Source: Setoptus koraiensis
Taxonomy: Eukaryota > Animalia > Arthropoda
Length of the DNA: 64,000 nucleotides
Reading direction: 5' to 3'
Assembly: GCA_048013815.1 (NCBI GenBank)
Contig: CM106585.1
Span: 7,688,001 to 7,752,000, forward strand
The translations under genes were made by a program, and so were the position numbers. Every line of letters starts with the position of its first letter. Within the stretch, counting starts at the first letter, position 1. The notes below the pieces were generated by a model. It saw only the letters and a list, made by a program, of their open reading frames with translations, did not search any database and was not told the origin of the DNA. This document shows, in pieces, positions 1-45,413 of the stretch.

Positions 1-1
1 C

Positions 2-217
2 GATCTGAAACGCATACCCATGCTAAAGTCCGCATTGAATACACTGTTCTGTGAAGAGGTTGCAGCTTTGCAAGATAGGGGGGAAAGGACAAAGATGAAA
101 CAAGAACTTATCTCCAAGTATTTAGAAGAGCATCAGAGTACAAGCAAGCTTAATGCCAAAGAAGTGTCGCAAAGAATTCAAGAGGATATAGAGGGTAGCC
201 TATCTAATAAAATCTGA
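2..217 (+). CDS. 3' end of an unidentified protein-coding gene (runs in from the window edge)
   Basis: Frame is open from position 2 (DLKRIPMLKSALNTLFCEEVAALQDRGERTKMKQELISKYLEEHQ...SNKI*) with helical, protein-like composition, followed by an AT-rich 3' region converging on the Pc gene. Family not recognised. Confidence 0.55.
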   Translation, partial: DLKRIPMLKSALNTLFCEEVAALQDRGERTKMKQELISKYLEEHQSTSKLNAKEVSQRIQEDIEGSLSNKI

Positions 218-350
218 AAACTATGAATGTGCACAAATTTATATAGTCATGCTAATGTTGTCATCTTCCGGTTTTTTATTTACATTGGAACTTAATTAAT
301 TAAAAATATACAGTTAAGTAGACATGCTTATGCATTGCGATAGTTCTTGT

Positions 351-1838
351 TCACTCATCAACAGTCTCGACGGCAACGCTATGCTTGTCTTTGTCCCTAA
401 AGAAGCCGCGCTCTGTTTTACATTCACATATACTTATAGTTTGATTATTTACAGTAACATCTGTGATAACAGTACCTAATATAGCTGCATCAGACAGATA
501 AAGTGAATGTTCGAGAGAGTTCACGGGTGTATGCTTGGGTGACGGCGGTGGTTCTGATGCTTGATTTAGATTGTCCACCGATGTTGGAGCTAATATTAGA
601 GCTTGTGAATGTGTTGGTGTGCAAGTGAGTATCTGTTGGTTATTTTCTGATGTTCTTTTAGTCTGAGTGAGTGCTTTGGGAACAGTTCGGCGTGGCTGCA
701 TCCCGAATGCAGCCTCTATGGTAGGCATAGTTCGGCGTGGCTGGATCCCGAGGGCCGTCCTCATAGTTGGCACAGTGCTGCGTTGTTGCGTACCAAAATT
801 AGCGCTCACAGTCGCCACGGGGGTGCCCTGTGGGATTCCGAAAGTGGCCCTTAGAGTGGGCATGGCTTGACTTGACCTAGGTTGTAGATTGGGCTGGACT
901 GTGGCCACTGTGGATACTGGTGCAGCTTTGATTGCAGGTGGACGTGCGGGTTTAGCTGCATATGCGCGTACTGATTTGGGTGTAGACGTGGGTGCTGGTT
1001 TCGTTGCGGGAGCCGGTATGGATACTGGTCTCATTGCTACTGTTGGTGTTGGGGCGACCAAGGATGGGGGCGTAGGTGTAGATTTCGGTTTGAGTTCTGG
1101 TACCAATACCGGTGTGGATGTGGGTGTGGGTACTGATGTAGACGTTGATGTGGATGTGGACGTGGACGTGGTACAGACATATGTTGGTGCCGATGTGGCA
1201 GCTGACACAGCTGGTAGTACCGGTGTAGATGCTGTTGGAGATACAGTTTTCGGTGCGGTTGAGGAGGCAGGTGAGGTTGCCAAGGTGGTTTTGGGTTCAG
1301 ACACATTATTGAGTATGGGCGCCGATGTCGTTGGCGTGAGTGTAGGTGCTGGTGCGGGTGATTTTATGGGACTTGAGGCCGCCTCTGATGATGGAATTGG
1401 CTTCAAATCAGCTGATTTCGAGGTAGAACTAGATTCAGGAGTCTTGTCTTGGTCGATTTCCACAATATGAGATAACTCGGTGTCACCGGATTTGGAGGCA
1501 GTGGTTGCATTCAGAGTTTGATCTAGATTTGTTTCTAAATTTTGAGTCGGCTCGGTATCATCTGACCTAGGGGCAGGAGTTGAGTCCAAAGTTTGGTCCT
1601 GATCTATTACTAAGTTTTGATTTGATGTATCTAGGGTTTTAGATATATTAGAGGACTTTTTTCTTTCTTTACTCTTTTTGCGTTCAAAGGCATCAAAGAG
1701 TCTCCTATCCAATACATTTTCAGCTGGTTCCCAAGAATTGTGTTTACTGCTCCAGCCCTTCCATTTGATTAGATATTTCATTTGACCATTTTCTTCTTTC
1801 TCTTCCAGAATGCGTTCGGCATCATAAACGTCATCCAT
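351..1838 (-). CDS. Pc: Polycomb / CBX2-4-6-7-8 class chromobox protein, 495 aa, intronless
   Basis: N-terminal chromodomain VYDAERIL...KYLIKWKGWSSKHNSWEPAENVLDRRL, a Pro/Thr/Ser-rich linker, and the C-terminal Pc/Cbx box TVITDVTVNNQTISICECKTERGFF. Confidence 0.92.
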   Translation of the reverse strand: MDDVYDAERILEEKEENGQMKYLIKWKGWSSKHNSWEPAENVLDRRLFDAFERKKSKERKKSSNISKTLDTSNQNLVIDQDQTLDSTPAPRSDDTEPTQNLETNLDQTLNATTASKSGDTELSHIVEIDQDKTPESSSTSKSADLKPIPSSEAASSPIKSPAPAPTLTPTTSAPILNNVSEPKTTLATSPASSTAPKTVSPTASTPVLPAVSAATSAPTYVCTTSTSTSTSTSTSVPTPTSTPVLVPELKPKSTPTPPSLVAPTPTVAMRPVSIPAPATKPAPTSTPKSVRAYAAKPARPPAIKAAPVSTVATVQPNLQPRSSQAMPTLRATFGIPQGTPVATVSANFGTQQRSTVPTMRTALGIQPRRTMPTIEAAFGMQPRRTVPKALTQTKRTSENNQQILTCTPTHSQALILAPTSVDNLNQASEPPPSPKHTPVNSLEHSLYLSDAAILGTVITDVTVNNQTISICECKTERGFFRDKDKHSVAVETVDE

Positions 1839-2134
1839 TTTGAATAATAGTGTGGCTTGGTATGATTAAATTTTAAATATGGAATAGAGGATAATAATAA
1901 TAATAAATAAATCCTATAATAATGAGGATAAAATCACGTTCATGAATACTGTAATGCGAGAAGATACATGTAAATCCCATTCACAGTGAAAACGGCTGTA
2001 CTGCAAAAAGCCCGAATTGCCGAAAAGAAGCGCGCAACTCAAATAAAAAATTTATGTAGAGCAACCAGTTCATTTTTGATGACAGTCAAGTTGGAACTAA
2101 ATAATTGATTCAGAAATCTTGAATATACTATGAG

Positions 2135-2500
2135 AGGCAATAATGTTAGAAATCTGTATCCATTCCAGGGCTAGGCTAATAGTTCGGAGATCTTATTGGC
2201 TTGGTTTTCTGACCGACATCTAGCCGATAGTGTGCAAAGTAAGGCGCCGGCCAGTGGGCACGAAAAAGCGCTCACGATAATAATTGACACTGTTGAGGAG
2301 AGGAGACATTATTGTTGATAATGAAGACAAAAAATGAGATTGCTGATAAGATAATGCAAAGTTGGATGATTCTTTCAGCTCCGCCATATAGCTATTTTTG
2401 ATTTTTGAGGACGCTGTCGATGATCATGCATTGATAGAATGGACATGGTGAAGATTTTGTATGGTTTACGATGGCGTATTGCTAGATAAAGCGCATTCCA
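2135..2500 (-). repeat. Diverged direct duplicate of the ENPP last intron plus final exon (partner copy at ~12350-12695)
   Basis: Collinear similarity by eye, e.g. 2217 catctagccgatagtgtgcaaagtaaggcgccggccagtgggcacgaaaaagcgctcacgata vs 12423 tatctagccagcagtgtgcagagtaaggcgccggccactaggaacgaaaaaccgctcatgata; atgcattgata and agctccgcc blocks are also shared. Confidence 0.9.
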
Positions 2501-3036
2501 ACACAACAAAAGCGAGCGGTGCACTTGCAGCAACGGGCTTATGTTGCGCCTATGTCTGCAGAAAAGCCGCCCTGCTGATATCGGTGCCTAACAAATTCAC
2601 TGTGGTTATTTTGCGTTGTTGTTGTTGTAAATCTAGAGCTAACTGTAGGTCCGTAATATCATTTTTAATTATCAATCATTTATATAAAATACACATGTTA
2701 TTGTATGTTGTCAACCAACGACGTCGTTCTATATCAATTCATTATTAATTGTATACAGTTCAAAGACCCTGTAATGCCTTATTATACCAGCCAAGCCCAG
2801 TAGTCGCCATTCTCGACACTTACTCTAGATGGTGCAATTAGACTCACAGTGATAAGAATAAGAGAATTAGTGTGTTTGGGCGAGTTTAATGCTCGTTTAC
2901 TTTTGACCCGGACTAAACCGATATTGCCTCAACAGAGACTGGAGGGCCATAGGAATTTTCCACCGGTTGATCTTGCATTGGTTGTTTAAAGTCCAATAGA
3001 ATTTTTATTGATATCATTCGGAGTGCCTGCCTCACC

Positions 3037-4095
3037 ATGTCCTCTGACATTTACATGGACCAAGAAAATGACAGACTTCCTGCAGGAATGACGCGAATTG
3101 GAAGTGAAACAGATACTCAACCTGACACGGGCTATGATAATAGACGCCAACAAAACAGCACCTCACGTCTCGATGATAACTCAACCTCGAGCGACAACAC
3201 CAGCAATTACAACACTGTTAATGGAGTTGAAGTTACGGACGCCTCAAGAAAACGAGACTCCAATTGGAATAGAGACGAAGTTGTATGCCTCCTTAATAGT
3301 ATTAAGGAAATAACTAACAGCAAACGAAGCGATGGCAGAAAAAGAAGCTCTCGTGAAATATTTGAATACTCTGCCAAGAAGATGATAGAGAAAGGATTTC
3401 CAGTTAGAGGTGACCGCGAAAAGTGTAGGACCAAATGGAAAAAACTCAAAGAAGAGCTTTCGTTGGCTAAACGGGCCAGACAAAGAGATGGCCCAAACGC
3501 TAGAATACCTGTTGGTATAATACCATTCTTTTCGATGCTTGATGAAATGATTAATCTGCAACACCATAACATCAGTCCAAATAGCACAATTGTTAGACGC
3601 TCACAGTCGTCTATCAGTCGTGACGCAATCCATAGTGTTCCTCGTTCGAGCCATATTCAGCAACAAAGATCTACGAACACTCATATCAACACTGATTGTT
3701 TACATGGACAGGGAAATGATCAAGATATGCCTGTAAATCAATCCGACACCGATCCAGGAGATCTGGTCCAACACGGTACTTATACTGCAGGTATACCTGG
3801 TTCACTAATGAGCAAAACAGGCAATAATCCTACGACCAATAACCATCCACAACAACAATCCGGGAGCCCTATTGAAGATTACAATAGCTCAGCTATGATG
3901 AACAACTCTGAAGCTAATGCTTCTATGATGCAAAATTCAGAACAAGCCTGTGACATTTCATACAGAGTTAGTAATGGCTACCGACAGATCACGATTTTTG
4001 GAGATCATGATGTTGACATAAAATTTAGAGGAGACTGTGTTACAATAAATAAGTTGATTGAAGAATACACTGGGTGTGAGATGCCTTTCAATTAG
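3037..4095 (+). CDS. Myb/SANT-like (trihelix/MADF-type) DNA-binding protein, 352 aa, intronless
   Basis: Motif NWNRDEVVCLLNSIKE...REIFEYSAKKMIEKGF...REKCRTKWKKLKEE is typical of Myb/SANT-like trihelix domains; the rest is low-complexity N/S/Q sequence. Confidence 0.8.
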   Translation: MSSDIYMDQENDRLPAGMTRIGSETDTQPDTGYDNRRQQNSTSRLDDNSTSSDNTSNYNTVNGVEVTDASRKRDSNWNRDEVVCLLNSIKEITNSKRSDGRKRSSREIFEYSAKKMIEKGFPVRGDREKCRTKWKKLKEELSLAKRARQRDGPNARIPVGIIPFFSMLDEMINLQHHNISPNSTIVRRSQSSISRDAIHSVPRSSHIQQQRSTNTHINTDCLHGQGNDQDMPVNQSDTDPGDLVQHGTYTAGIPGSLMSKTGNNPTTNNHPQQQSGSPIEDYNSSAMMNNSEANASMMQNSEQACDISYRVSNGYRQITIFGDHDVDIKFRGDCVTINKLIEEYTGCEMPFN

Positions 4096-4633
4096 TTTTT
4101 GTATGATTTATAATGGTGATGCTGTTGATGCCGAATGCGTGTGCCTCTTGGTTTGGGTTTCTGATGCGGTTGCCTATCTTTTTTTGATGTTTCTGCGATG
4201 TACAGGAAAACTTTATCATTGTTTCCGCGACTGGTGACACCTGTATCACTATGGCTCTTTTTCATCTTCTGATAAGACACTCATGTTGTTGCATTGCATC
4301 TGATCAGCAATGAAGCAACAAAACCTCTACCGGCTATTCAGTCAATTATGTAACGACTCTGAATGAACTGATCAATCGACTGATAGCATCAGAGGATGTA
4401 ATTTTTATTATTTATTACACTTGTAATACTACGGCGACATTATCACTTGTACTAATGACCATGACTCGTGAGTCTGTGTTATACCTGCAAACATACTTGG
4501 TGCCTTTCTATGGTAACAACACCCTGTTGAATTTGTAATCGTTCATTCTAAATATAACCCATCTAATATTCACATCACAAGATAGCTGAGGACTCTCTCA
4601 GTCGATATTGGATTATTTACAAAACCTAACAAT

Positions 4634-6091
4634 ATGGCAGAACAAAACCAAGATGATGCGAGCCTAAAAGAGGTCTCAGAAATCGATGCTAGTGGTGACC
4701 TCAAAAATGGTTCAAGTAGCCCTACAAAATCGTTGTCGGAAACACCAACTCGCAACAAATCTGCAGAGAAATACTGGTCTGAAATCGATCCGAACGAAGA
4801 ACTAGTTTGGATGGACTACTGTATAGAGGATATACCAAGATATGAGCTACGTAAAGAGATAACTGACGAGCAACTATTGATTTGCTTCCACAACTTTCAT
4901 GCCACTTTGAACACGAGAGTGAAGGATGCGAGTTTTGCAACTTTGATGAACTTGATGTTGCAGTTGGCCCCAAATCTGTTGCATCACTGTACAAGTTGCA
5001 GGTTTCAGGGGACCAAGGTGATCGAGTCTGTTAGGAGAGGACCCGTTAGAGAATTGATTATACCAGAAAATCTATCTACCAGAATGGAGGTAGACTTTAA
5101 TTCCAAGAAAGAGATCAGTGTTCCGAAATCGAAATGTGACATCGCAGGAACTGTAGTAGTAGATGATAAACAATTCAATGAGTGGTACTCGGATATATCA
5201 AACAAACAAGACTCCATTGCATTCTTTGCCTTGTTTAGTATGGCAAGCTTTAGAATTCTAACAAAATCGAAATACAATTCTATGAAACATCTGCAAGGAC
5301 TTTTATTCAATAGATTTCGATTTTTCGCACGTACTGCTAGACCTCCAGCATTCCCTCTGATAAGTGAGAAATTCATAGAATCTTACCAAGCTATAGCCAG
5401 GGAAGATTACGCATCTTTCAAGAGCATCCTCGCTGATGTTATCTACCATTTCCATTTTCCAAGATTATACCGAGACGGGGTATGTCGACTATGTCAAGAT
5501 CTCCGTGGCTATGTAATTCAAGTGCCATTGAGTGGGACCGATATGGCGGTGTTAAAACTGCTAGATAAAGGGAACGCTATTTCGGGTGGAAAAGTTTTCT
5601 GGCTGAGGGACAAAATTGAGGAGATGAAAAATGCGACGATCAGAAAACAGTTCGAAAATTGTCTTAGGCTGTTGCTTACCTTTTATATCAAACCAGTTGA
5701 TCTTGAGGGTCACAGTGCTTGTTTGATCACGTATGCTCGTCTCATAGACAAAAGATTTTATTCATCTTTAAGTAATGCGGCAAACAAAGAATTGTGGTGT
5801 CTATTAGCCGGGATCGAAGCATCAAGCGATGATAGTACGCTAGAGAGTATACATTTATTGAAAGCTTTCCTGCCAAGAAATAAAGAGAGGATTTCATATT
5901 TTCGGAAAATCTTCAAGAAGGGATTCTCGTTGGGTGAAGATTTGAGAGAGGGCATCGACACCAAGTATAAAGATATAAAGTTAAAAGAAGATCTAATTGC
6001 AGAGTTTATGAGGAATGGTTTCGATAGGAAACTCTGGCCACTCCCGATGATTAACAAGGAGATACTGGTACCTCAGCCGAACGAAGGATAA
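4634..6091 (+). CDS. Endogenous viral element: rhabdovirus-like (plant cyto/nucleo/dichorhavirus-type) nucleoprotein N, 485 aa, intact ORF
   Basis: Length fits plant rhabdovirus N. Recognised motifs: N-terminal W-x-D-x2-I-x2-IPxYxL, central FALFSMASFRILTKSKYNSMKHLQ...RFRFF, and C-terminal YARLIDKRFYSSLSNAANKELWCLLAGI (cf. YAR(L/I)xDxx(F/Y)FxxL). No resemblance to a cellular family. Recognition from memory only. Confidence 0.75.
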   Translation: MAEQNQDDASLKEVSEIDASGDLKNGSSSPTKSLSETPTRNKSAEKYWSEIDPNEELVWMDYCIEDIPRYELRKEITDEQLLICFHNFHATLNTRVKDASFATLMNLMLQLAPNLLHHCTSCRFQGTKVIESVRRGPVRELIIPENLSTRMEVDFNSKKEISVPKSKCDIAGTVVVDDKQFNEWYSDISNKQDSIAFFALFSMASFRILTKSKYNSMKHLQGLLFNRFRFFARTARPPAFPLISEKFIESYQAIAREDYASFKSILADVIYHFHFPRLYRDGVCRLCQDLRGYVIQVPLSGTDMAVLKLLDKGNAISGGKVFWLRDKIEEMKNATIRKQFENCLRLLLTFYIKPVDLEGHSACLITYARLIDKRFYSSLSNAANKELWCLLAGIEASSDDSTLESIHLLKAFLPRNKERISYFRKIFKKGFSLGEDLREGIDTKYKDIKLKEDLIAEFMRNGFDRKLWPLPMINKEILVPQPNEG

Positions 6092-7853
6092 GGTCGTATC
6101 ATCAACGTATATTTCGTGCATTTCTCTCTGTTTCGATATACAATTGTAGCCGGAAGATGTCATAGGAAAAGCTCACATCAGTCTGTTTCGTCTGATTTAG
6201 GCTCATCAAATTCATCGTCGCCCCGATGGTTCATGTCACCATTGCCTCCGGACGCACCGCAAACCAACTTAACAGTGAACTACTGATCAAGTGTCAATCG
6301 ACTAGCAATAAACGCCGGCAATCGCGATATTAATTGGTTTCTTTCCAGTGAAATGCTTCTCAACAAAAGTTACTGAATCTTCATCAACCATTGCCGCGAT
6401 TAACAATGGTTTGCGTAAAAGATTGTTTCTACCACACCAGCTACTTTGAGCTGGCAAAACCGTTTCTAATGACAATCACTGTTATTATTATCACTATTTT
6501 ATTACCAACATCATCATTGATATCATCATCCATGTATAGTTCGATAAAAAGATAGTTTATCTTAGCTATCATTTCTTTCTTGTAGCCGCCATCCAAATTT
6601 TCTCAATGAATTGTAATACGTTCGTCACCTATCCAGAATAGATCTGCATAAGCATAATCAGAATGATTCACAGCTTGGTTATTATCGCTTTGTTGCATTG
6701 TACTTACAAATAAACATATTCTGGCCGGAATCTCTGTGGCGGAAGAGCGTCTCTTACCTCCTAAGACCAAGGTCAGACTTTTAGTAGCGAGGGGTGACGG
6801 AGGAATTTTTCGCCCCGCTGTAGTGCAGTAAAGCGAATGCCCGCTGTAAGCAATAAGATTCTTGTCCAAAAGTGGTGGCGAGAGGATTCTCACTGGACCA
6901 GTCAGCCCGATGATGATACAAACTGTGTCGGAGAGACGGGCGCTGCAACCAGTACATATACTCGGGTGGTGAACGTTCGCTGGCCAAAAATTCCAAAGAA
7001 CAGTATTGCGGAAAGAAAATCTCACCTGACGCAAGGATGAGATGAGAGTGATGCATCATCTCGAAATACTGTCAGCTTCAAAATATCATTATTTTGTTAT
7101 TTTTTTGTGATTGCCAAAATATTCAGCAAATTCAACTCTAATCATCCAATTATGTATACTTAAGACTAATAGAAGCAAAATAAGGATTTGTTGCAAAAAG
7201 GGCTGTTCTGAATAGTGTCTGCTACGGGTAAATCTTTTTGTGGGTATTGTAGAGCACCTCGAGAGAAATCTTTTCAGCCGGGTTCCATTTCCGGTCAAAA
7301 ATAATAAGATTATTGCAAAAAATCGACTTAGTGGAAAAGTATTTAATAATCCCACTAAAGATAAGTTTAGCTCGATCTCAGCGAATCTTCTGTTCTCTCT
7401 TATCAAATCAACCACCAATACAGTAAAATTAACTCAGCTGCTATACTGCAATGTAGCTCTCTCAGGCCTACTAACTTAGTCTCTGAATTGATTATTTAGT
7501 CTACAATTATCAATACTCGCTCTGCTTCTCATCCTCAATAGATACCCTTGCTGAGTATGAGGCTATGTTTTTATGTTGGTATGTAATATAGTGTATTAAA
7601 TAGACTGTATTAAATTTTTGCATTCTCATAGAGTTATTTCTGGTGTCGGAAAAGATGTAGGTGTAGCCTTCAGCTTGGGTTTTTGGTAATCAGTTGTGTT
7701 TCAAGATCATTTGTCTAAAACTGCAATAATAGGATGTTAATAGGATAAGCGAATCTTCAACCCATATAAAACATAACCTAGACAATTCTTTGTGAGTGAT
7801 AGATCATGATCCTCTTAGGGAGATTTATTAGAAATAAAATATTATCATTTGGC

Positions 7854-10035
7854 TTAATTTAGTGGGGCTTGCTGAGTAATCTCTATTCTTTGTACGGTCA
7901 TATTTGGATCCATCATGGTGGCCTCCTGAATTGCTTCAGCTAAAGCTAATTCATGATCGACAGGATCGCCATCGCTCTTTATAGTAATTTTGTGTTCAAC
8001 ACGCGTTTCTACCATGCCATCTTTTTCCATTTTGTACTGTTTTTAGAATTTTTTAAATACAAAATGAGATTGTTCTTGTTATGTACTTGAACCTACACGG
8101 ATCTCGAATAGTAAAATGAGTTGATCTTGATCATTTATTCATGATACTTACTGTCATCGTCTCCACCGTATGAGTTTTACTCGAGATAGTTTGAGAACTA
8201 ACGATGTCATCCTCTCCATCTGGAGAAGGTGACTTGAGTGCAACTCCTGATGAGTTGGCAAAAGATTGCGGCGGGGCTAAACAGGTGTCTGAATGCTTTG
8301 TTTCACCTTTTGAATAAGAGTTGGACGGCTGTGATGGAATTTAAAAACAAGTGGGTGTTAATAGATTGCTAGAAAATTTCTTAGAGCAAAGCTATCAGCG
8401 GGTTGGAGAGATCTCTTGTGCACGTACCTTTTTCTCGATAAATGCTGCTTTTCTTGTCTCAGAGGTAGTTACTGGCATGGAAGTTCTGTTGGTGGCATAT
8501 TGTTGTTGGCCCCTTTGAGGTCCTATGGATGACGCAGGAGCGGCACCATATCTAACCATCTCACTATAAATGACAGGGGCTATATCATCGTAATTACCAC
8601 TTACTATCAGATCCGACTTACGATTATTATTTTCATAAACTGATTGTCTAGAAATTGATTCTTTGCTTTTAACTCGTTCGATGGGACTTTTTCTCTGCTC
8701 TTCTATTTTTTTCATTTCCATAGGGGGTAGAACAGCAACACCACCTATAGGTCTTCTATGCATAGGTTTCTCTTTTTTATCACTGAGTGATTCTTCTGTC
8801 AAGGATGGTGAAACACTATCATGAGTAGTTATGGAATTATAAGAAATTGCATTGCCAGAGAGCGTTCTGTCTGTGGCTTGTCGACTGGACCTGCCAGCAC
8901 CATCATCGTTATATACAGGATAAGTTTGTTGACTTTTTATACTGTTTATATCTACTTCTGATGGTTGCCGCCTGTTTGATTGTCTTTCCAATGTTTGACC
9001 CCCATTGTCAATACTCTGACTGGCCCAGTTTCTGTTGCTGAATGTCCTTTGGAAATCAGGATGTGGCCGTTTTATTTGCATGCTGGCTTGTTTCGATTGG
9101 TATTGTGTACGACCGGAGTATCTAAATTTTGATCCAAATCTTGGTAAGAGAATTCTAGTTCTATTTGGTTCCTCGGGTGTTGTCAATCTAAAAAATGTAT
9201 GATGCTCAACGCAGGTCTTCCACAATCTTTTCGCAGCAGTTAAATTGGCCAATTTGAAGCCTATTGTACTTTCGTATTGATCGAATTCGCCCGGCCTTAT
9301 TCTAATATAAAAATTATTTCTCTTATAAGATATCTTCAATATTTTAGGCCAAGCAAATCTATTTATTCTCAATCGGTCAATGTAAACAAATAGACCTGAG
9401 GCACACACGCCAATGAGTATATCCGCGCCAGCTGAGTCCTTGGCTGGATGTAGATCAACACCATACATGGCCAATCTGCGCGCATTCTCTAAATAGTGTA
9501 GATCTGCCTCGGCTGACGTTTGTCCTTTATGTTGCTGATGCAATTCTGCCACCCGCAATTCAAGCTCTTGTGTTTGTTGGGGCGCAAATTGAAAATCCCT
9601 GAGATAATCTGAATCGTGCTCTTGGGGGTCGTAATCGCCCAATTCCGATTGGACCATGTAAGAGCCTAGGGCAGCGTAAGTAACTAGAGAGCATGGCAGT
9701 CGGCCAGTGAGTATGTCCCGGCGCACTTGTAGACAGACAAAATATCTGGTGATGTCCTCGTGCAATTGTGCCGGATCTGGTGGATAAAATTTGACTTCAA
9801 AGTATAATTGCGCATTATTGTGACTCTTGAGTTGTCTGCCAATGGGCTTTTCGTTGTTTAGCCAGTCCTTGCCCTCGTTGGGCGACGTCTGAAACGACAG
9901 ACCAAAATAGTCTTTCTCGAGCAGGTTGACGTGATCGCACACCTTGTCGAACAATAATTGACCCTTGGATTTTTTGTCCACCTTGATGTCGACATGGGTG
10001 TTGTCGAGCAGTACAACCTTAATAGATTTCTTCAT
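7854..10035 (-). CDS. cora: Coracle / protein 4.1, ~655 aa; exons 10035-8428, 8328-8152, 8036-7854
   Basis: FERM plus FA domain ([43 protein letters not shown]). Two phase-0 GT-AG introns join it to the 4.1 C-terminal domain ([62 protein letters not shown]). Confidence 0.95.
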
Positions 10036-10356
10036 GATTGTATAGATCTAGTAACTGTTGTTGTTGGGTTAGCGATAGTGACAGTAGTGTTAGTATTGCG
10101 TGCGTTTGTGGTCTATGCGTCTCTCAATCTGTTAATGTGATATATCTGTTTCTTTTTGCTTGTTCGTCTGGCCATAACTATGTGTGCTGTGATGTTGTGT
10201 TCAATTGTCGAGATTGGCCGCGTTCGTCATCGTGCTGCGAATGATTGCGCTGGAATAGTGTGGGTCGTAGTAAAAATATTTCTGTGATGCGTCTTGTATA
10301 AATAATGGCAGTAACAAACTAATACGGCGCTTTTTTACACAGAAGCGACAATACGC

Positions 10357-10470
10357 TAGTGATACGGTAATACAGTGATACGGTAATGCAGTGATTCGGT
10401 AATACGGCAATTCGGTAATACAGTGATTGGGTAATACAGTGATAGGGCATTCATACAGTGATTCGGCGGT
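10357..10470. repeat. Degenerate ~17-bp tandem repeat (CAGTGATACGGTAATA-like), about 6-7 copies
   Basis: gtgatacggtaatacagtgatacggtaatgcagtgattcggtaatacggcaattcggtaatacagtgattgggtaatacagtgataggg seen directly. Confidence 0.8.
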
Positions 10471-10875
10471 AGTAAATGGGGCGAATATTATTATTATCGT
10501 ATCCACTGTGTGTGCAGTTGTTGCGAGAAGCAAAACAGTGTGCCAATGGTTCGCTATTTTTCTGCACCGTCTGTATTGGCGGTGCTGCTGCTGCTGGCTG
10601 GCTGGCTGGGTGTAGCGTTCACTGAATGGATTCTAAGAACGCAATCATCGATTCGATCCTTTGTCGCGCACACACACACACAGCGAGAGTGTTGCCACAC
10701 ACTGACGCTGCCTGGCACAAGATTAATTGGACACCCTGGTGCAATTAATGGTGCAGCGCAAGCACACCCCAATGGCCGGGTGCGCAACGAATAATGTTCA
10801 ACAACCTCCGCCCGTGTCTCCTTGTCCGCAATGAGTAACGAGTGATGCGACGATCCCACTCATTCGATCCGACAT

Positions 10876-10900
10876 GCACACACACACACACACACACACA
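10876..10900. repeat. (CA)n microsatellite, one of many (also ~44247, 44629, 56238, 57300, 62088)
   Basis: Direct observation of CA/TG runs. Confidence 0.9.
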
Positions 10901-12247
10901 CCGTGCACCATATACAGCAAGCTGCACCAAACAACCAGCGCCAACAGTTGCTGTCGGGCACTTGCAGCCTGCAAGTTGCAGGCGCATCACGCACAACACA
11001 CAGCGAACGCACAAAATCGAACAAGCGTAGCGACCTACTCTATCACGCTGTCAGTGTACAGTGCTGCCTAAACACACACACACAGTAGTAAACGTTGGAC
11101 GCTTGCGAACCACCGACAATTCGATTCCAATACCTCCCCCTCCGAACTTATGCTGTAAGACTTGACTCGTAACACGCCAGCGGCCACTCTTACTCACCAC
11201 TTCTCGCCTGCCTTGCTGATACCATCGCACACTATACGCACACACTTTGTCGTGCCGCGAAAGCAGAGTGGGCGTTATAGTGAACACTGTTCAGAAAACT
11301 TTACCGTGTGTGTGTGTGTGTCCGAAAACAACAAAAAACCGCACCGCATATCCGCCCAGCACGGGCATACCCGCACATCACTATTGCTACTACACTCGTT
11401 TGCTGGACCGGTTCCCGTGTCGAGGCGGCCCGCACTGAACATGGCAACCTCGGCATAAAAATCAGCGCGTCGCCAACAACAGCCTAGCCTTTCACTGCTA
11501 ATCACTGGTGAGGCTCTCTGGCTGGTCATCCGGCTCCCTCTGTTTATATATGTAACATGAGTCACAAAGTGACTCCAACATGCAGCTTCAAAAATGTTAA
11601 AATGCCAAAAGTTGGTACTAGGGCGCAAAATTTCAAATCATCTGCCCCAAAATGCAATGAATAGTTTACTTTGTTACACCAAGTCGCTATTTACTAGTTC
11701 AAATTGACATTAACGAGCACTTCGTTAGTGCGAAAGTTTTTTATTATCAGTCGTTTTATCGTTTGCTTATGTAAAACTATAGACAAACTACAACAACGAC
11801 CACGCCGCGCCATATCCATCATCCATCGAATCGATTCAAGATGCGTCTGTATAAACTTTTACTTACAACTTACTTTGTTAGAGTCAGAGAAAATCATGGT
11901 ATGAGTAACCTTAGCTTGCGTTGGCACATTCTTAGTCAGTTGCTAAATTTGTCGACCAACCGTTTATAAGATTAATAGATAAGAATTGTAACCGCATGTT
12001 ATACGGTCATGAAAAACAGAACTGCCGACGAGAAGCGCGCGACTAGATGAACGATATTTCAGCTAGTGCTTTTTTCGCATCAGCTAATCTGAACATGATG
12101 AATTGAGCCAGATATTCCAATCAATTTGAAATGTCATGTTATGCAACGTATGTAATGTAACTTCGGTGTGACGACACTGTTAGTTGCCTATTAGTTGAAA
12201 TCTATCTGTTAGTTTATTGCATATTGATTCAATCAGTTATTTGATTA

Positions 12248-25562: not shown

Positions 25563-27691
25563 CTAGCTCAATGTTTGTGTAAATTGTGACATCACATATA
25601 CTGCTGTAGTGATCCAGACGGCTATCTGCTCCAGATTAAAAAATTGAACAATTTTTGTGGTTATTTCGGTTGGTTCATTATATGCTGTCGAAACATAGTT
25701 ATGAACAGAGACAAAACTCACGGTGGGAAAATTATCATAGGTGAGCGTGATTGTTTGCAGCATAACAAACGAGGTCTCTGATCTCATCTGTAGATGCGTC
25801 GACGTTTCGATCAGACGCAACCTCCTAGAGGGATCCAACGAACTGTATTCGGCCAGTAGCCATAAGATTCCTTTATTGATAGTCTTGAACTAATCATTCG
25901 ATGAATAGTAGCGGAATTAATAATAATTGGTGTACATCTCATTAATGATTAGATTAAAAGATGGGTTGCACTGGGCGGGAAGTTAATTAGAGTGTTGCAA
26001 AATAAAATAATGACCTTTTGAGCGACGTGTGCGAACATTGTCATTTGGACCAAGACATTACTCGCGTGACATATTAGACAGCAGAGTCCTGCCCACTCTG
26101 ATACAGGTTTATAATTTTCAGTAAACCTATCGAATACTATTATACCTACGTGCCAAGCTGAGGCCGACAACGATATAAGTAAATCCAAATCAGTGCGTCC
26201 CATGAAATATCCGCGATAAGTCTTGAATTCATATAGCAATCTGTGCAAATTCGTTATCAATTGTGAACACTTTTCATTCAATAATCTTCTTCTATGATGA
26301 TCAGCGTTTGATGTACTTTTATAAGCGACATCATAGAAACTTTGAGCTAATTTTGCATCTTTTCTGCCCTTCGATCCCTTCGCCGATGGCGACCTACCTG
26401 TATATCGGACATGTTTCAATTGATCATAATTGAATGCTCGACATTGTTTGCGAAAATTTTCAAGTTGTAAATCTAGAATTCGCAAACGATCATATAATAT
26501 CAATGTGATAACAAATGATGAATTTACATCACAGAGGGAGATGGTATTTACCAATGTCAAAATTACTCTGTTTGTTATCACAATAAAGTGACCGATCGTA
26601 TTACGTTCTTCCATTTGTGATTTCGTCAATACACAGGTTAGCAACACAATAAATAACCAAAATAATGCCACGACAAAGAACGTCAATACACCAATTATCC
26701 TGTAAAGCCACTTGTAGCCCTTATAGCTACAAATTACATAATTTTGTTCACATATTGCCATCAAGTCAAACTTCAACAAATCATCCACCGTCATCTTTTT
26801 CAAAATTGGAAATTTTCTGACGATTTTAGTATCTAAGTCCCTCTCTGTACATAAGTATGTGATGTGATCTTTAACGGACATTTTGGGCGCAAATAAGGAC
26901 GTTGTATATTCCATACCAACAGTAGTGTGCAATTTAGTTGACAAACTTATCGGTTGTTCGTAACGGTGTTCTTCAATTGAGCACGTAGTTGATGCAACGC
27001 TGTATGCTCCCCTGGTGCTCGTCATTTGTTTCCGCAGCAAACAATACGCTCTCTTAATAAGACCACCTAGGATAAACATCATCGCAGCCATGTTTAGTCT
27101 TTTGTTTTGTTCGAATGCAGAAAAGTTGTCGTATTTAATTACTGTTTCAACAAATTCGAACAAGTTACCAAAAACTGCAAACACATAATTTGTTGTTGTG
27201 TTGGAAGCTTCATGAGACAGACTAACTAGATGCTTTTCTAAATGCTCACTTGTTGTGTTGTCACTGTCAAACAATATCGCTGATTGGTTACTCGTATTTG
27301 TATATTTATGAAGGCTTTCTATTTGGTCTGACATGCTGATATCATGTGCCAAATGGGTTTCGGATGTGGGACGGAGTAGCCCATTGTGAACGCACTGCAA
27401 GAACCATATCATTAAATAAAATATTTCCAAAATGTGACAAAACAATCTTGGTTTATTCTCTCTGGCCATCACTAGGAAAACTCGCTTATCGCTGCCATAT
27501 TTGTTATCATAGTAATAAGGGGTCCAAGAGAAATTAAACCATTGGATTATGTATGATAAAATTAAATGTAAGTTGTAAGGAGTTTTAATAATATTTATCA
27601 GTGTGAATTTCTCATTCTTATTTTCGTCATGATGATCGTGAGGCCGATTATTGGTGTTGTTTCGCATTTCTTCTATCTGACTGTCGGACAT
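25563..27691 (-). CDS. Gustatory receptor (7TM ion channel superfamily), ~635 aa; exons 27691-26015, 25889-25722, 25625-25563
   Basis: Multiple TM helices; two phase-0 introns near the C-terminus (AQK|FKT and FPT|IAV), as is typical of GRs; terminal exon IAVWITTAVYVMSQF matches the GR TY-h5-QF-like TM7 signature. Confidence 0.75.
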
Positions 27692-40200: not shown

Positions 40201-43200
40201 TCAATTTGGCAGTGCCGGTGAAAAAGCATGCAAATTTTAACTGTCGCAAAGACGATGATTTACTCGAAAGCCTCGTTATTGGTTCTCCTCTGTGTGTCGC
40301 GAGGCAAATTCGCGCGACGAGATCAGGTGAAATGATGCAAGACGATTGAACGAGCTCGAAAATAGCTGATGTGATGCAAGAGTTGTCAGGTCCGCAGAGT
40401 TAATCACCAATCGATCAAACTATATTATCATTATGTTTGCGTCACTCATCACCAAGGTCAAAAGTTCGAGATGAAAGCGAGAAAAAAATGTGTAAAATCT
40501 TGAAACGAATTGAAATCTGACTTATATTTGCAAGCACGCAGCATACTTTTAAATATGTGCAATATTTTATTTTTTTCAGGCCCGAACTTTATGTGTTATG
40601 TAGCGGCTCACTATAGGCAGTTAATTTAATTATCACCGATAATCAATCAATCACGCCGAGTTGAGAGTGGGCAGTCAAGGCAGGCGAGCTTTTGTGTGAA
40701 AGATGGATGAGTTTATTTTAATGCGCATGCAGCAAAAAGTAATGAGATGATTGGATTATTTTTGTTTGTTTGTGTCGTAACGTTGTAGCCGGTTGGTGCT
40801 GATCGAGATTATATTTTCCGCAGACTGTTGCCTGGTAGCGCTGCGACTGCTGCTGCCGCCGCCGCCGCTGCATTATCGAGCCGCATCCAATGAAGCGGCC
40901 AATTGAAACACGCGCGACACGGGCCACAAATCGGGGCCGGGGCCCCATCGATGGGGCAGGCTCCGGTTATTGGCGTTTGTGCAAATGTGAAACCGATGAA
41001 TGTCATTGAAGTGATTCTCAATGAGCCGGCCTCAAGTCTGGCCGGAATTTAGATGGGCGAGCGCGATGCATTAGATGAGGAGCGTCACAGAGCGGCGGCA
41101 CTCAATCGAAGATGGGCACGAACAATTGTAGTTTTACTGGCCGATTTGAATTGGCCGAAAAAAAGCTTTCCAGCGAGCTCGCGCGCAAAAACAAACCCCA
41201 ACAATTGTGCGTAGGTGTGCGTGCCGCGCCACGGCTCGGGGTGATCGATCAATTCACTTTGAATTAATGGCGTCCACTAGCGCGCGCACTGTTGCGACCA
41301 ACTAACTAGATATTGGCACGCTGGGCCCCCACCGTTTGCAGCTTGTTTCGAGCCAGTTGTTACAGCGGCGCCGTTACAGCCAGCGCTGTTTTAGTGATCT
41401 TGTATAGGTGGCCCGCGGCAAGCTCACACCTTTGCAGTGCGCGAGCTGGCCGCCAGTTGAATTTTAGCAGCCAGATAGTGGACACTTCCGAGGGGGCCCC
41501 GGCAAATATATATATATATACGTATATCTGGCCTGGCGGCGGGTAAGTGGCGCCGACACTCGCTGCATGGCGTCACTAGCTGGCACCGGCTACTGGTGTG
41601 GCCAGCTCGACAATCGCAACACCAGATTCTAGCGACCGGAGCCACCCACACGCACACACATACACCTGTCATTAGTGGCCAACGACAAGCTAGCGGAAAA
41701 CGCACAACAAATTACATATATAGAGGCGCCGGAGAGCGACGAAATTGGATTAGTAGCAGCGCCAGCACTGATGCAGCGCTGCTGCCGACTGACTTATCCT
41801 GGCCGCTAACAATTGTGTCTACTGTGTGTTGCACACTGTGTCGTGTTGCGCAACCTGGGGCCCCAAACAAGGCAAACAATGACTTGCCGATGGATTGTGA
41901 TTGTGTGGCGCGCATGATGCAATGGGCACCAAGCCAAAGGATGCAAGCGCAGAGAGAGAGCGAATAAATATTAATAGTTGCAATCGGTGGCTGCCTCTAT
42001 ATCTGGCGTGTCGCTCAATGACTCATTGACTGATTATCTGATCGCATTTACCGCACCCGACAACCCGCACCCGACAACACACACCGGCAACATACATGAC
42101 AGTAACACGCCTCGCAAGGTGGCAACTCGCAGAACAGGTGAGTCGGGTAATCCGCCTCGGCCGGCGCACCAGATATATTGTGCATCACAATTGCTATACA
42201 TATGCATGCACACGACAAAAGATATAACGGGATGAAGAGATACAGTCACACAGAGTGGCGCCCACTTCGGCCAGCTCCTTTTGGCAAGCGAGCGGCTGTG
42301 GCGGCTGGACACCAGAGGCGCTGTCTGGCTGGCTGGCTGGCTGTCCTGTAAAAGCGGGGCCCGTTCTCTGCAACTTACAGATCGTCGCAAGCGCGAGGGC
42401 CGCGAAGGCTCAGCGAACCCGACGAGGGGCCCGATCGAAGCGAGAGATAGGCTCATATCGCGCCGTTGCAGCCAGCGACTAGCGCACCAGCAGTCGCCAT
42501 TTCGATCGTGATGGCGGCGCCCGGTTTCTTGGGGCGCGATGCCCGCGATAACAGAACGCGGTGAACAGATAACTTATTATCGGTGCCTCACTTGTTATTA
42601 TTATCATTAGAAGGCAAGTGTGTGGGCAGAGAGAAAAAATGAGGCGCGCGCGCGCCACGACGAGAGTCAGTCCCCATGAGAGGGGGGCACAGGGATGGCG
42701 AGAAAAAAATGGGCCGCTTGCCCGTGGAGGTCACAGCCAGAACAATGACAAGTTGAGTTGTAGCTGGCCGACGAGCGCCACAGACGCCATCGACGGATAG
42801 TTAGATTAGGGGCACACAGTTTGATTGGCTGCCGGCGAGTCGCTGCAGTCACCTGTAAGTCGGCTGCAGTGTTGCAGACTGGGCACACTAGGCAGACATG
42901 GGCGCATTAGCACAGGGTGCCTCACAAGGGGCCCCGACGCGTTGGCTGACGAAGTGCGTTTTGCGCCCAATTAATTTGACCTGGCGCGCACTGCGTACAG
43001 CACATGGCCACCAACAACGACCAACATTATACGGATTTATCTATAGTCTGTCTGTCTGTCTGGTGTGTCGCTCGGCGCGGCCGGCTTGTCGCGCCAGGCG
43101 AAAACACACGAAATGCGGGGCGCGAGAGAAAAAACAGAGAAAACACAGAAGAAGCCAGCGGCCTCTTCTCGCCCCTTTTCGTCCGCATTCGTCCGCTCTC

Positions 43201-45413
43201 GTCCGCTTTCGTCCGCATTCGCCCGCTTTCGTTCGTTTTTCGTCCGCGTTCGTCCGCGTTCGTCCGCGTTCGTCCGCGTTCGTCCGCGTTCGTCCGCGTT
43301 CGTCCGCGTTCGTCCGCGTTCGTCCGCGTTCGTCCGCGTTCGTCCGCGTTCGTCCGCGTTCGCCCATTTTCGTCCACTCTCGTCCGCTTTTCGCTCGTCC
43401 TCTGGCGCGTCGGCCAGAGGCCGCTCGCCCCTTCTGCCAGTCGCTGGCCACTGCCGCTCCGCAAATAAGCCGGGCGCGAGATTACGCTCAATGTGCAAGT
43501 CGTCACGGCCAAAAATATGGCAAGCCGAGCACATTGACGGGCAATAGTCTGGTCACATACCATTGGGCACGGCGGGCCGGTGCGTGTGCAAGCGGCCCCG
43601 CGCCAGCGTGCACCTAGGGTACAAATTGGTATTTGGGCGTGGGCTGTAATTGTATTATGGCGGAACCGGTTGCTAAGTAGCTTGGGCGACTTAATATCAT
43701 CATTGAGCATTCTTATTCGCCAGCGCCCTTCGCTGTCGACTGCTGCCCAGACTGGCTTGGCCGCCGTTATTCTGCTTATATTATCGCATTTTATTTTATT
43801 TTATTTTACTTTATTTTACTTTATTTTACTTTATTTTACTTTATTTTATTTCGCCCCTTGGTTTGGCCTCTCGCTCTGTCGCCATGGGCGCGACTCTTGC
43901 TGTCGGCGCGCTCGTCGGTACTTTATTTTGTCTCTTGGTACCGAAATTGCAGTTCAATTGTGCGCTCACAACCGGCACACACCAGACAGCGACAGATAAA
44001 ATCAAACAATGATGACGATACAACGCATTGACAACACCGTCGGCCATTGCCACCAGTCTGCGAGGGGCCAGCTCCCAGTTGAGCAAATCGTCGGGCAAGA
44101 AAATGCCCAAAGTAGTTTGAGAGATAAAACAAGTTTGGCTGTTGTCGTTGGCCTAACTGAGCCACGCCGAGCCACGGACAAAGTGTGTGCAGTGCGGATA
44201 AAGGACACTGCTCACAAATTTACATCTCGGCGACTATTTGTCTGGCACACACACACACACACACACACTGCACTAGCCAGCGAGGCATTGCAAGGGGCGC
44301 CGGCGAGACATTGCAAGAGTGGCCCCATGGCCCCGCGAACTGCGCAGCGCAACTCGCAGCCTGCAAACTGTTTGATTAGCGACGAGATAAATAGATAAAT
44401 AAAATCACCATTAGCTTGGCGACTTGCGCGCCCGATCTCTGCTGATTCTTGAATTCTGCTGGCACTTGGGGCCCAGCCAGCGGTATCGTCGACAACACGT
44501 GGTTTAGCCCTGGATAAGCCATCTCGGCGAGCATCTGTGTGTATATCCGCCGTATTCCGTTCTCGCAAGCGCGAGCCCATCAGTCCCCATCAGGGCAAAA
44601 GCCCGGCGTGTGATATATGCTGCGAGTGCGTGTGTGTGTGTGTGTGTGTGTGATATCAATAATTGATAGATAAATAAATTGATGATTACCTCTATCTGTG
44701 CGTCTATCGGTGTGGCCGGTGCGCCGACTCTGCCGTTGCCGAAATCAACAGCTGAGCGCATTCTCTTGCTGCATACATTATCCTCTCTCTGGCTGGCTGG
44801 CTCGCTGCTGTCTGGTCATTACTAATCGATTACATCATACTAAATATATAAGCTGCATTAATGTTGCTTATATATTTAGAGCCCCACAGCGGGCCCCAAA
44901 GAACGTTCGGCGTGCCACTAAGCCAGCCAGCCAGCGAGCACGACGGCCAATGCGATCGAGATTATTCTAACTAACTACCGGCGCTACTGCAACGGCTTCG
45001 GCTGCTGATGTTGCTGTTGCTGCAACGGCACTGGCGGCCAAGTAAGCCCATGGGGAGCCCCTGCCGGGCCGACCCTTGGGCCAAATTGTATATCGGCTCA
45101 CAATCAGATCGATCGGACGGGCAACGCACGGCGGCAACTGGGCCGGGCCGGGCCAACTGGCGACCGACTTGAGAGAATAAATGCAAGCAGGCATAACAGA
45201 GTGCATGTGTGCCCATTTCATCGCAATCAGTTTAACACGAGCCGGGCCGGGCCGGATTGTGTCACTAGTCGCAACGATATCGGTCGGTTGTTTGTCGATG
45301 CCAGTCAACAACAAAAAAGCAAAGTTCACATGTGATGACGCAACTCGACTCGACTCGCATCACAGATATCGATCGTGGATAAATGGTGCCCGATGCTGTT
45401 TATTTTGCTCACA

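Follow-up and report, generated by a model that had tools for sequence, protein, structure and literature searches.

A putative domesticated rhabdovirus nucleoprotein gene in an animal chromosome

In arthropods, insertions of RNA-virus sequence are mostly fragments whose action, where there is any, is through small RNAs, and those known to code for protein under selection are few. In the 64,000-nucleotide stretch of DNA analysed here (the window), a reading frame of 485 codons lies among ordinary genes, and a first-pass annotation, made from the letters alone, read it as the nucleoprotein (N) gene of a plant-infecting rhabdovirus. The locus raises the questions of whether this frame descends from a rhabdovirus N gene, what kind of virus gave rise to it, and whether it now serves its host as a gene. 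The features on which the analysis draws are as follows.

351-1838: chromodomain gene, a host gene to the left of the Myb/SANT-like gene
3037-4095, + strand: Myb/SANT-like host gene, left neighbour of the ORF (PF13837, E 4e-11)
4277-4354, no strand assigned: non-coding block common to a diverged copy, inferred to be a possible promoter element
4537-4633, with similarity to 4645, + strand: upstream block common to a diverged copy, likely 5' UTR
4634-6091, + strand: putative N-derived ORF, PF03216-type rhabdovirus nucleoprotein, with an N-like core at about residues 55-430
4808-4843, + strand: W59...IPxY70 motif, W59 lying 308 residues ahead of the YAR motif (262-313 in 16 reference N proteins)
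5252-5266, + strand: R207xxxK211 helix end, residue 207 being basic in all 7 relatives and all 16 references
5534-5548, + strand: altered site of the GmH motif (as given in the available part of PMC3136472, Figure S5), D-M-A at 303-305
5732-5785, + strand: YAR..D...F/Y..L motif, with the tail S...N like that of the unnamed relatives, as against QtkxC
6170-6246, + strand: downstream block common to two diverged contigs, likely 3' UTR, with AATAAA at 6307
7854-10035, - strand: coracle/protein 4.1, right neighbour of the ORF (FERM domains 8395-10035, 4.1 C-terminal exon 7857-8042)

Similarity to rhabdovirus nucleoproteins

The ORF at 4634-6091 (+) is a single exon of 485 codons without an internal stop; when the first 16 kb of the window were shuffled 200 times, no stop-free run exceeded 227 codons. 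The ORF scan, together with the neighbours identified by Pfam, confirmed the earlier description of an uninterrupted 485-aa frame amid host genes. Direct comparison with Pfam gave PF03216 as the best of 24736 families, at 14.6-15.7 bits (E 0.01-0.02), which is below the 25-bit cut-off. Nucleocap_ssRNA, the family originally proposed, did not match.

A blind phmmer search of 1.84 billion proteins returned nine matches to the ORF protein. Two were discarded as spurious: P0005, a repeat protein, and P0009, a match of 38 residues within a protein of 3265 aa. The other seven (E 1.8e-9 to 7.4e-4) all fit PF03216, four of them above the cut-off. A profile built from these seven relatives scores the query at 134.7 bits and, when compared with a profile of 16 reference N proteins, the query being in neither, gave a probability of 99.0 with E 4.5e-18 over 334 columns. 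The reference N genes were obtained by motif scans, in which 16 of 23 loci were kept; six near-copies or partial frames were left out, as was L025, which yielded no frame. By eye, seven references could be matched to rows of Figure S5 in the available part of PMC3136472: LBVaV, poplar RNLS3, SYNV, LYMoV, LNYV, PYDV and OFV. Two further motif scans yielded no stretches, and a third yielded one repeat of L019 and two non-N loci. In the scanned metagenome contigs, the poplar RNLS3-type frame of L004, L005 and L007-L010 is open for 445-490 codons in five of the six and is shorter in L008.

On profiles built from the references alone, the query scored 14.8 bits with 11 references (best of 5000 shuffles, 6.8) and about 14.0 bits with 16 (best of 5000 shuffles, 7.6). 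Because a phage frame chosen by its YAR pattern alone reaches 12.1 bits on the reference profile, against 13.9 for the query, this score taken by itself is thin support. Four of five motif blocks, chosen post hoc, peak at the expected query residues (67, 207, 303 and 367) and in the correct order; the query was matched by two of 1500 shuffles for the four blocks outside YAR, and by none of 1500 for the YAR block. A reference-guided structural model (pLDDT 49) matched a rhabdovirus N in BFVD (Foldseek E 4.6e-6) and the carp virus N (Z 9.7, rmsd 6.8, 312 aligned), and mononegaviral N proteins filled 13 of its first 15 rows against the PDB, all three results being partly circular. Insect and crustacean rhabdovirus N proteins were among the top fold matches of this model. 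With Foldseek, nothing in the PDB was found at E 0.001, mononegaviral N proteins taking 8 of the first 10 rows. The single-sequence model (pLDDT 34) had no N match and is uninformative.

Other searches contributed little. Word-seeded protein searches gave no matches, and these blanks are uninformative because one that included 11 known N proteins also came up empty. An exact look-up of five window proteins in a protein collection found none of the five. The best ESM Atlas scores (0.86 and 0.85) belonged to unrelated helical families, which were leads only and were rejected; PDB sequence searches were without an N protein, and their weak matches to PHIKZ128, CHMP1B and L14 were dismissed. Two 25-residue matches among related loci in viral contigs were judged to be chance. 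On the strength of the seven blind relatives and the profile-profile probability, which bear out the rhabdovirus N origin first proposed, the ORF almost certainly descends from a rhabdovirus N gene of the PF03216 type.

The motifs named in the first-pass annotation were verified at W59, IPRY 67-70, RILTKS 207-212, YARLID 367-372 and LSNAAN 379-384. The query contains the YaRifdxxxfxxL pattern and the ordered upstream motifs described in the available part of PMC3136472, the motif blocks having been picked after alignment, and two of its motif spacings exceed the reference range by 2 and 7 residues. Residues R207, K211, R369, D372 and L379 are retained. The GmH motif of PF03216 nucleoproteins is altered in the query: residue 303 is D, where G is found in all seven relatives and in 14 of the 16 references (S in the other two), and residue 301 is G, in place of the Y or F present in every one of the seven relatives. 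In composition the ORF is host-like (GC 0.40, GC3 0.42, CpG 0.84), as judged against NEMF in the same window.

Donor lineage and chromosomal setting

The seven relatives (P0001-P0004 and P0006-P0008) are 19-28% identical to the query. All are unnamed, each forms a single-member cluster, six come from Logan alone, and their contigs range from 1.7 to 18.7 kb. Since two of these contigs (10.2 and 11.8 kb) are rhabdovirus-sized and one (18.7 kb) is longer, the relatives may be viruses, insertions or both. In a quick, unrooted tree with a long query branch, a branch with 100/100 support separates the query and the seven relatives from the 16 references; the plant genera sampled were cyto-, nucleo-, dichorha- and varicosavirus, the tree being without several plant groups, among them NCMV-type cytorhabdoviruses and gymnosperm rhabdoviruses, and without all invertebrate groups. 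P0002, P0003, P0006 and P0008 form a supported subgroup among the relatives. AU tests, with groups named after inspection of the tree, reject placement of the query within the cyto, nucleo/dichorha or LBVaV groups (p 2.6e-5, 1.1e-5 and 1.5e-4). A tree lacking the seven relatives left the query unplaced.

From these sequence comparisons, the putative donor is a rhabdovirus lineage without a name, outside all the plant-virus genera sampled. The undescribed lineage that had been predicted is also upheld. The label 'plant-infecting' is unsupported, because the query falls outside the sampled plant genera and a spider-mite rhabdovirus likewise bears a PF03216 domain, according to the available text of PMC11512250. 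The ORF marks an unnamed clade, of at least eight N-like proteins, that escapes ordinary searches, and is a warning that such transcripts can pass for live viruses. It is conceivable, if unlikely, that the ORF and some of the relatives constitute, in place of scattered insertions, an ancient mite gene family, domesticated once from an undescribed rhabdovirus lineage and then duplicated and diversified as antiviral factors; were this true, protein-level antiviral factors would exist in some of the most stripped-down animal genomes.

Host DNA adjoins the virus-derived ORF at either end, and the locus is chromosomal. Beyond coracle, the window holds genes for a phosphodiesterase, an aromatic amino acid hydroxylase, amnionless and NEMF. 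Sixteen sequencing runs were listed, of which 10 contain part of 2500-8500 and 5 contain at least half of it; four (X2, X3, X6 and X7) were compared with the window. X2, from another sample and study, has identical contigs tiling 2500-5301, 5288-5938, 5910-7265 and 7236-8500, at depths of 116, 121, 121 and 111. The left junction of the ORF is bridged in X2 by 2500-5301 (0 differences) and in X3 by 4172-5151 (1 difference), and the right junction by 5910-7265 in X2 and 5910-7317 in X3, both with 0 differences. Both ends of the ORF are therefore bridged by contigs of two other runs, where no one contig spans the full stretch, the depth of a contig does not count copies, and the samples may come from one population.

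No target duplication, poly(A) or LTR partner was seen at the locus, and age would erase such marks. Between 4000 and 8500 no repeat frames the ORF; direct repeats there reach no more than 23 nt at 74% and inverted ones 22 nt at 77%, all of them short and degenerate. Among the remaining frames in 6100-7800, the longest two have no Pfam match, so that the repeat and Pfam scans agree with the original statement that no TIRs, LTRs or other viral genes lie beside the ORF. Positions 1-12000 gave no Rfam match, and no gene-end signal was found 3' of the ORF. The nucleorhabdovirus leader-N junction has a weak look-alike at 4618-4630, which may be chance, because the pattern occurs 66 times on the + strand of the window. 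Long intron-free frames are found elsewhere in the window (NEMF, 1007 codons; coracle, 546), and 84% of the genes of the eriophyoid Aculops are without introns (available part of PMC7738191). To judge from this, the host is likely an eriophyoid mite, and in a genome of that kind the missing intron says nothing about a retro-origin.

Several other elements were seen in the window. A short block at 7209-7295 recurs in other contigs of all four runs with differing flanks and no Rfam match, and could represent either a small dispersed repeat or a conserved element. At 6603-7055 (-) there is a stop-free frame of 150 codons, slightly GC-richer, partly present in the diverged contigs and without a Pfam match. 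A 580-aa frame at 25949-27691 (-) has several hydrophobic stretches and no Pfam match at E 0.05; by eye, we take it to resemble a diverged gustatory receptor. A 10-nt unit is repeated 21 times at 43178-43387, with an adjoining 5-nt AT-rich array at 43788-43851.

Diverged copies, selection and expression

Runs X2, X3 and X6 hold a diverged homologue of the ORF, about 89% identical where alignable (63 differences in 4730-5301), and the sequence shared with it extends into non-coding DNA, from 350 nt ahead of the ORF to 155 nt past its end. The 5' half of this homologue has a depth of 209 in X2, where from 5281 it divides into two variants of 100-123 each, which suggests that the ORF has two further, diverged copies. 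These may represent paralogues or a diverged haplotype, or come from a second species present in the samples. A second coracle (7768-8333), about 88% identical, is found in all four runs (31 of 275 and 24 of 197 letters differ), its depth against that of the window-type coracle being 118 vs 111 in X2 and 8.1 vs 7.5 in X6. There may be two deeply diverged haplotypes or subgenomes in the animal, or two species mixed in the samples. No diverged Myb gene appeared, and X2 depth is flat at 116 over 2500-4107.

Substitutions between the copies were counted in four gap-free stretches with apparently complete lists of differences, amounting to 124 of the 485 codons and 35 changes; the rows listed contain 40 of 214 and 40 of 79 differences, and gap-cluster and partly listed pieces were dropped. 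Over these 124 codons there were 19.5 synonymous changes in 74.7 sites and 15.5 non-synonymous changes in 297 sites (Fisher p 6e-7). The resulting dS of 0.32 and dN of 0.054 give a dN/dS of 0.17, a value biased low because only stretches at least 80% alike are visible, with 5447-5614 (the GmH region) and 5970-6091 unaligned. None of 3001 neutral simulations gave a ratio as low. Constraint is not uniform: the stretch 5120-5272 has 4.5 synonymous and 8.5 non-synonymous changes and is weakly constrained.

The net length changes between the copies (+9, -3, -9 and +6) keep the frame in four of four cases, about 1 in 81 by chance; multiples of three can nevertheless arise by chance, since the non-coding coracle intron also differs by 9 nt. 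A neutral frame of 485 codons stayed stop-free in 494 of 20000, 6 of 5000 and 0 of 5000 simulations at 0.08, 0.16 and 0.32 changes per site. With all net length changes in frame and dN/dS at about 0.17, a fresh or neutral insertion is unlikely. The first-pass annotation allowed for either a recent origin or purifying selection; the data favour the latter, and the codon pattern makes it probable that the ORF is a selected protein-coding gene. The small-RNA source that had been suggested as one role would not account for selection on codons. Our best reading is that the ORF is an old, duplicated, domesticated nucleoprotein gene.

A hint of transcription comes from X7. This run skips 8037-8151, which has CT..AC ends and corresponds to the coracle intron preceding the 4.1 C-terminal exon. 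It has pieces of the ORF identical to the window at 5161-5348 and 5633-5953 (depth 4-6, strandless), and a piece at 6104-6296, in the likely 3' UTR, at depth 3.3 with a 19-letter gap that is an allele or an error. X7 has no cover in several intergenic bins or in 4108-5112, to which no weight is given. None of the 16 listed runs is labelled as RNA, X7 included; X7 appears to be RNA, and the hint is from one study in which DNA carry-over is possible.

Possible functions and known counterparts

Because rhabdoviruses have no DNA stage, we infer that a host retroelement would have copied an N transcript into DNA, which then entered a germ-line chromosome. The N-derived gene would then have acquired host control elements, come to be transcribed and been duplicated. 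To judge from sequence, R207, K211, R369, D372 and L379 would permit binding of RNA or of an N partner, and the changed GmH region may make the protein a poor N subunit, as proposed for squirrel itEBLN. Such an altered N would enter the nucleocapsids of related viruses and block them. By this analogy we tentatively propose, as the likeliest function, that the ORF protein may be an antiviral decoy subunit against related viruses; granted that the ORF is a selected protein-coding gene, the chances of this are about even. In its favour, itEBLN associates with the viral RNP and polymerase is inhibited (available part of PMC4964890). Against it, a midge virus persists although its host has captured and expresses its N gene (available part of PMC6620529). 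Co-assembly with any known virus is doubtful, because the closest relative of the ORF is 28% identical, as compared with 77% between itEBLN and its target N (PMC4964890, in part).

A plausible but somewhat doubtful alternative, not far behind the decoy in probability, is that the protein, derived from N, binds or protects RNA for a host job in development, the germ line or feeding, and not in virus defence. The dN/dS of 0.17 fits it equally, the GC, GC3 and CpG of the ORF are those of host genes such as NEMF, the protein is far from any known virus, and its core GmH motif is altered. The available part of PMC10636211 offers a precedent in NlToEVE14, which the planthopper requires for development and fecundity. 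However, the duplication and the fast-diverging stretches suit conflict with viruses at least as well.

The copies might instead have been inserted independently and recently, as N genes of related virus strains, the selection having acted in the viruses, on whose N genes purifying selection also operates. The diverged N copies were not seen to be linked to the diverged coracle, nor was a diverged Myb gene seen. We consider this improbable in view of the non-coding blocks common to the copies, from 350 nt upstream to 155 nt downstream, and of the similarly diverged second coracle that these runs contain, consistent with a single old locus on two diverged chromosomes or in two diverged species.

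A role for the RNA only, in which the locus yields small RNAs directed at a cognate virus and the open frame is incidental, is customary for such elements in mosquitoes and sandflies (available parts of PMC13643977 and PMC10974309), and a piRNA pathway is present in the eriophyoid Aculops (available part of PMC7738191). It is nonetheless very improbable here: the synonymous excess and the frame-keeping gaps point to selection on the protein, the ORF lies among ordinary genes and not in a repeat cluster, and nucleotide matching would be worn down by the silent divergence (0.32) of the copies. An assembly artefact, or a host orphan gene resembling N by chance, could be argued from the sub-threshold Pfam match, the nearness of the YAR-picked phage frame to the query score and the single-sequence model without an N match, but this highly improbable explanation is largely refuted already by junctions bridged in two runs and by strong, full-length transitive homology through the seven blind relatives.

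A domesticated nucleoprotein gene, if its host is an eriophyoid mite, would mean that a viral gene was kept and duplicated in a lineage that has shed introns and gene families; retention in so pared-down a genome therefore argues for a real benefit. Eriophyoid mites transmit plant viruses, and an N-derived restriction factor, if that is what the ORF encodes, would have a bearing on vector competence. No report of an eriophyoid gene of this sort was found in the literature covered, which leaves out most subscription papers, although horizontal-transfer or orphan-gene tables in the supplements of mite genome papers could contain one; in the available text of the spider paper PMC12219104 'rhabdo' is absent, as is 'virus' in that of a Floracarus preprint.

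Several known systems resemble this locus in part; the cited papers are drawn on here for the portions available. The RNLS of plant genomes (PMC3136472) are likewise lone chromosomal N genes of the PF03216 type with the same motif order, whereas the query is in an animal host, stands apart from poplar RNLS3 and has an altered GmH motif. In the mite Tetranychus urticae, N-derived elements with long ORFs (1032 and 1239 nt) are found in the genome (PMC11512250); the domain there is named Rhabdo_ncapsid, and the likeness to the query drawn here is one of description. Sandflies have transcribed N elements (PMC10974309). Open frames of mononegaviral N genes are also known as squirrel itEBLN (PMC4964890) and afrotherian EBLN (PMC4982594), for which a dominant-negative model and long-term negative selection have been described; these are genes of mammals and come from bornaviruses, and itEBLN is close to its target, whereas the query is without a known close cognate virus. 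In the arthropod Chaoborus americanus, the captured negative-strand N gene of a phasmavirus is fixed and expressed, but its bunyavirus donor still circulates and infection persists (PMC6620529). RNA-virus genes kept as protein-coding genes include planthopper NlToEVE14 (PMC10636211), the partitivirus-like RdRPs of Brevipalpus, a plant-feeding mite (PMC13517406), and Aedes Flavi24 (PMC13643977); they derive from other virus groups and other proteins, and their expression or function has been tested. The domesticated N gene is thus of a known kind, and it is the donor lineage and the host that are apparently new.
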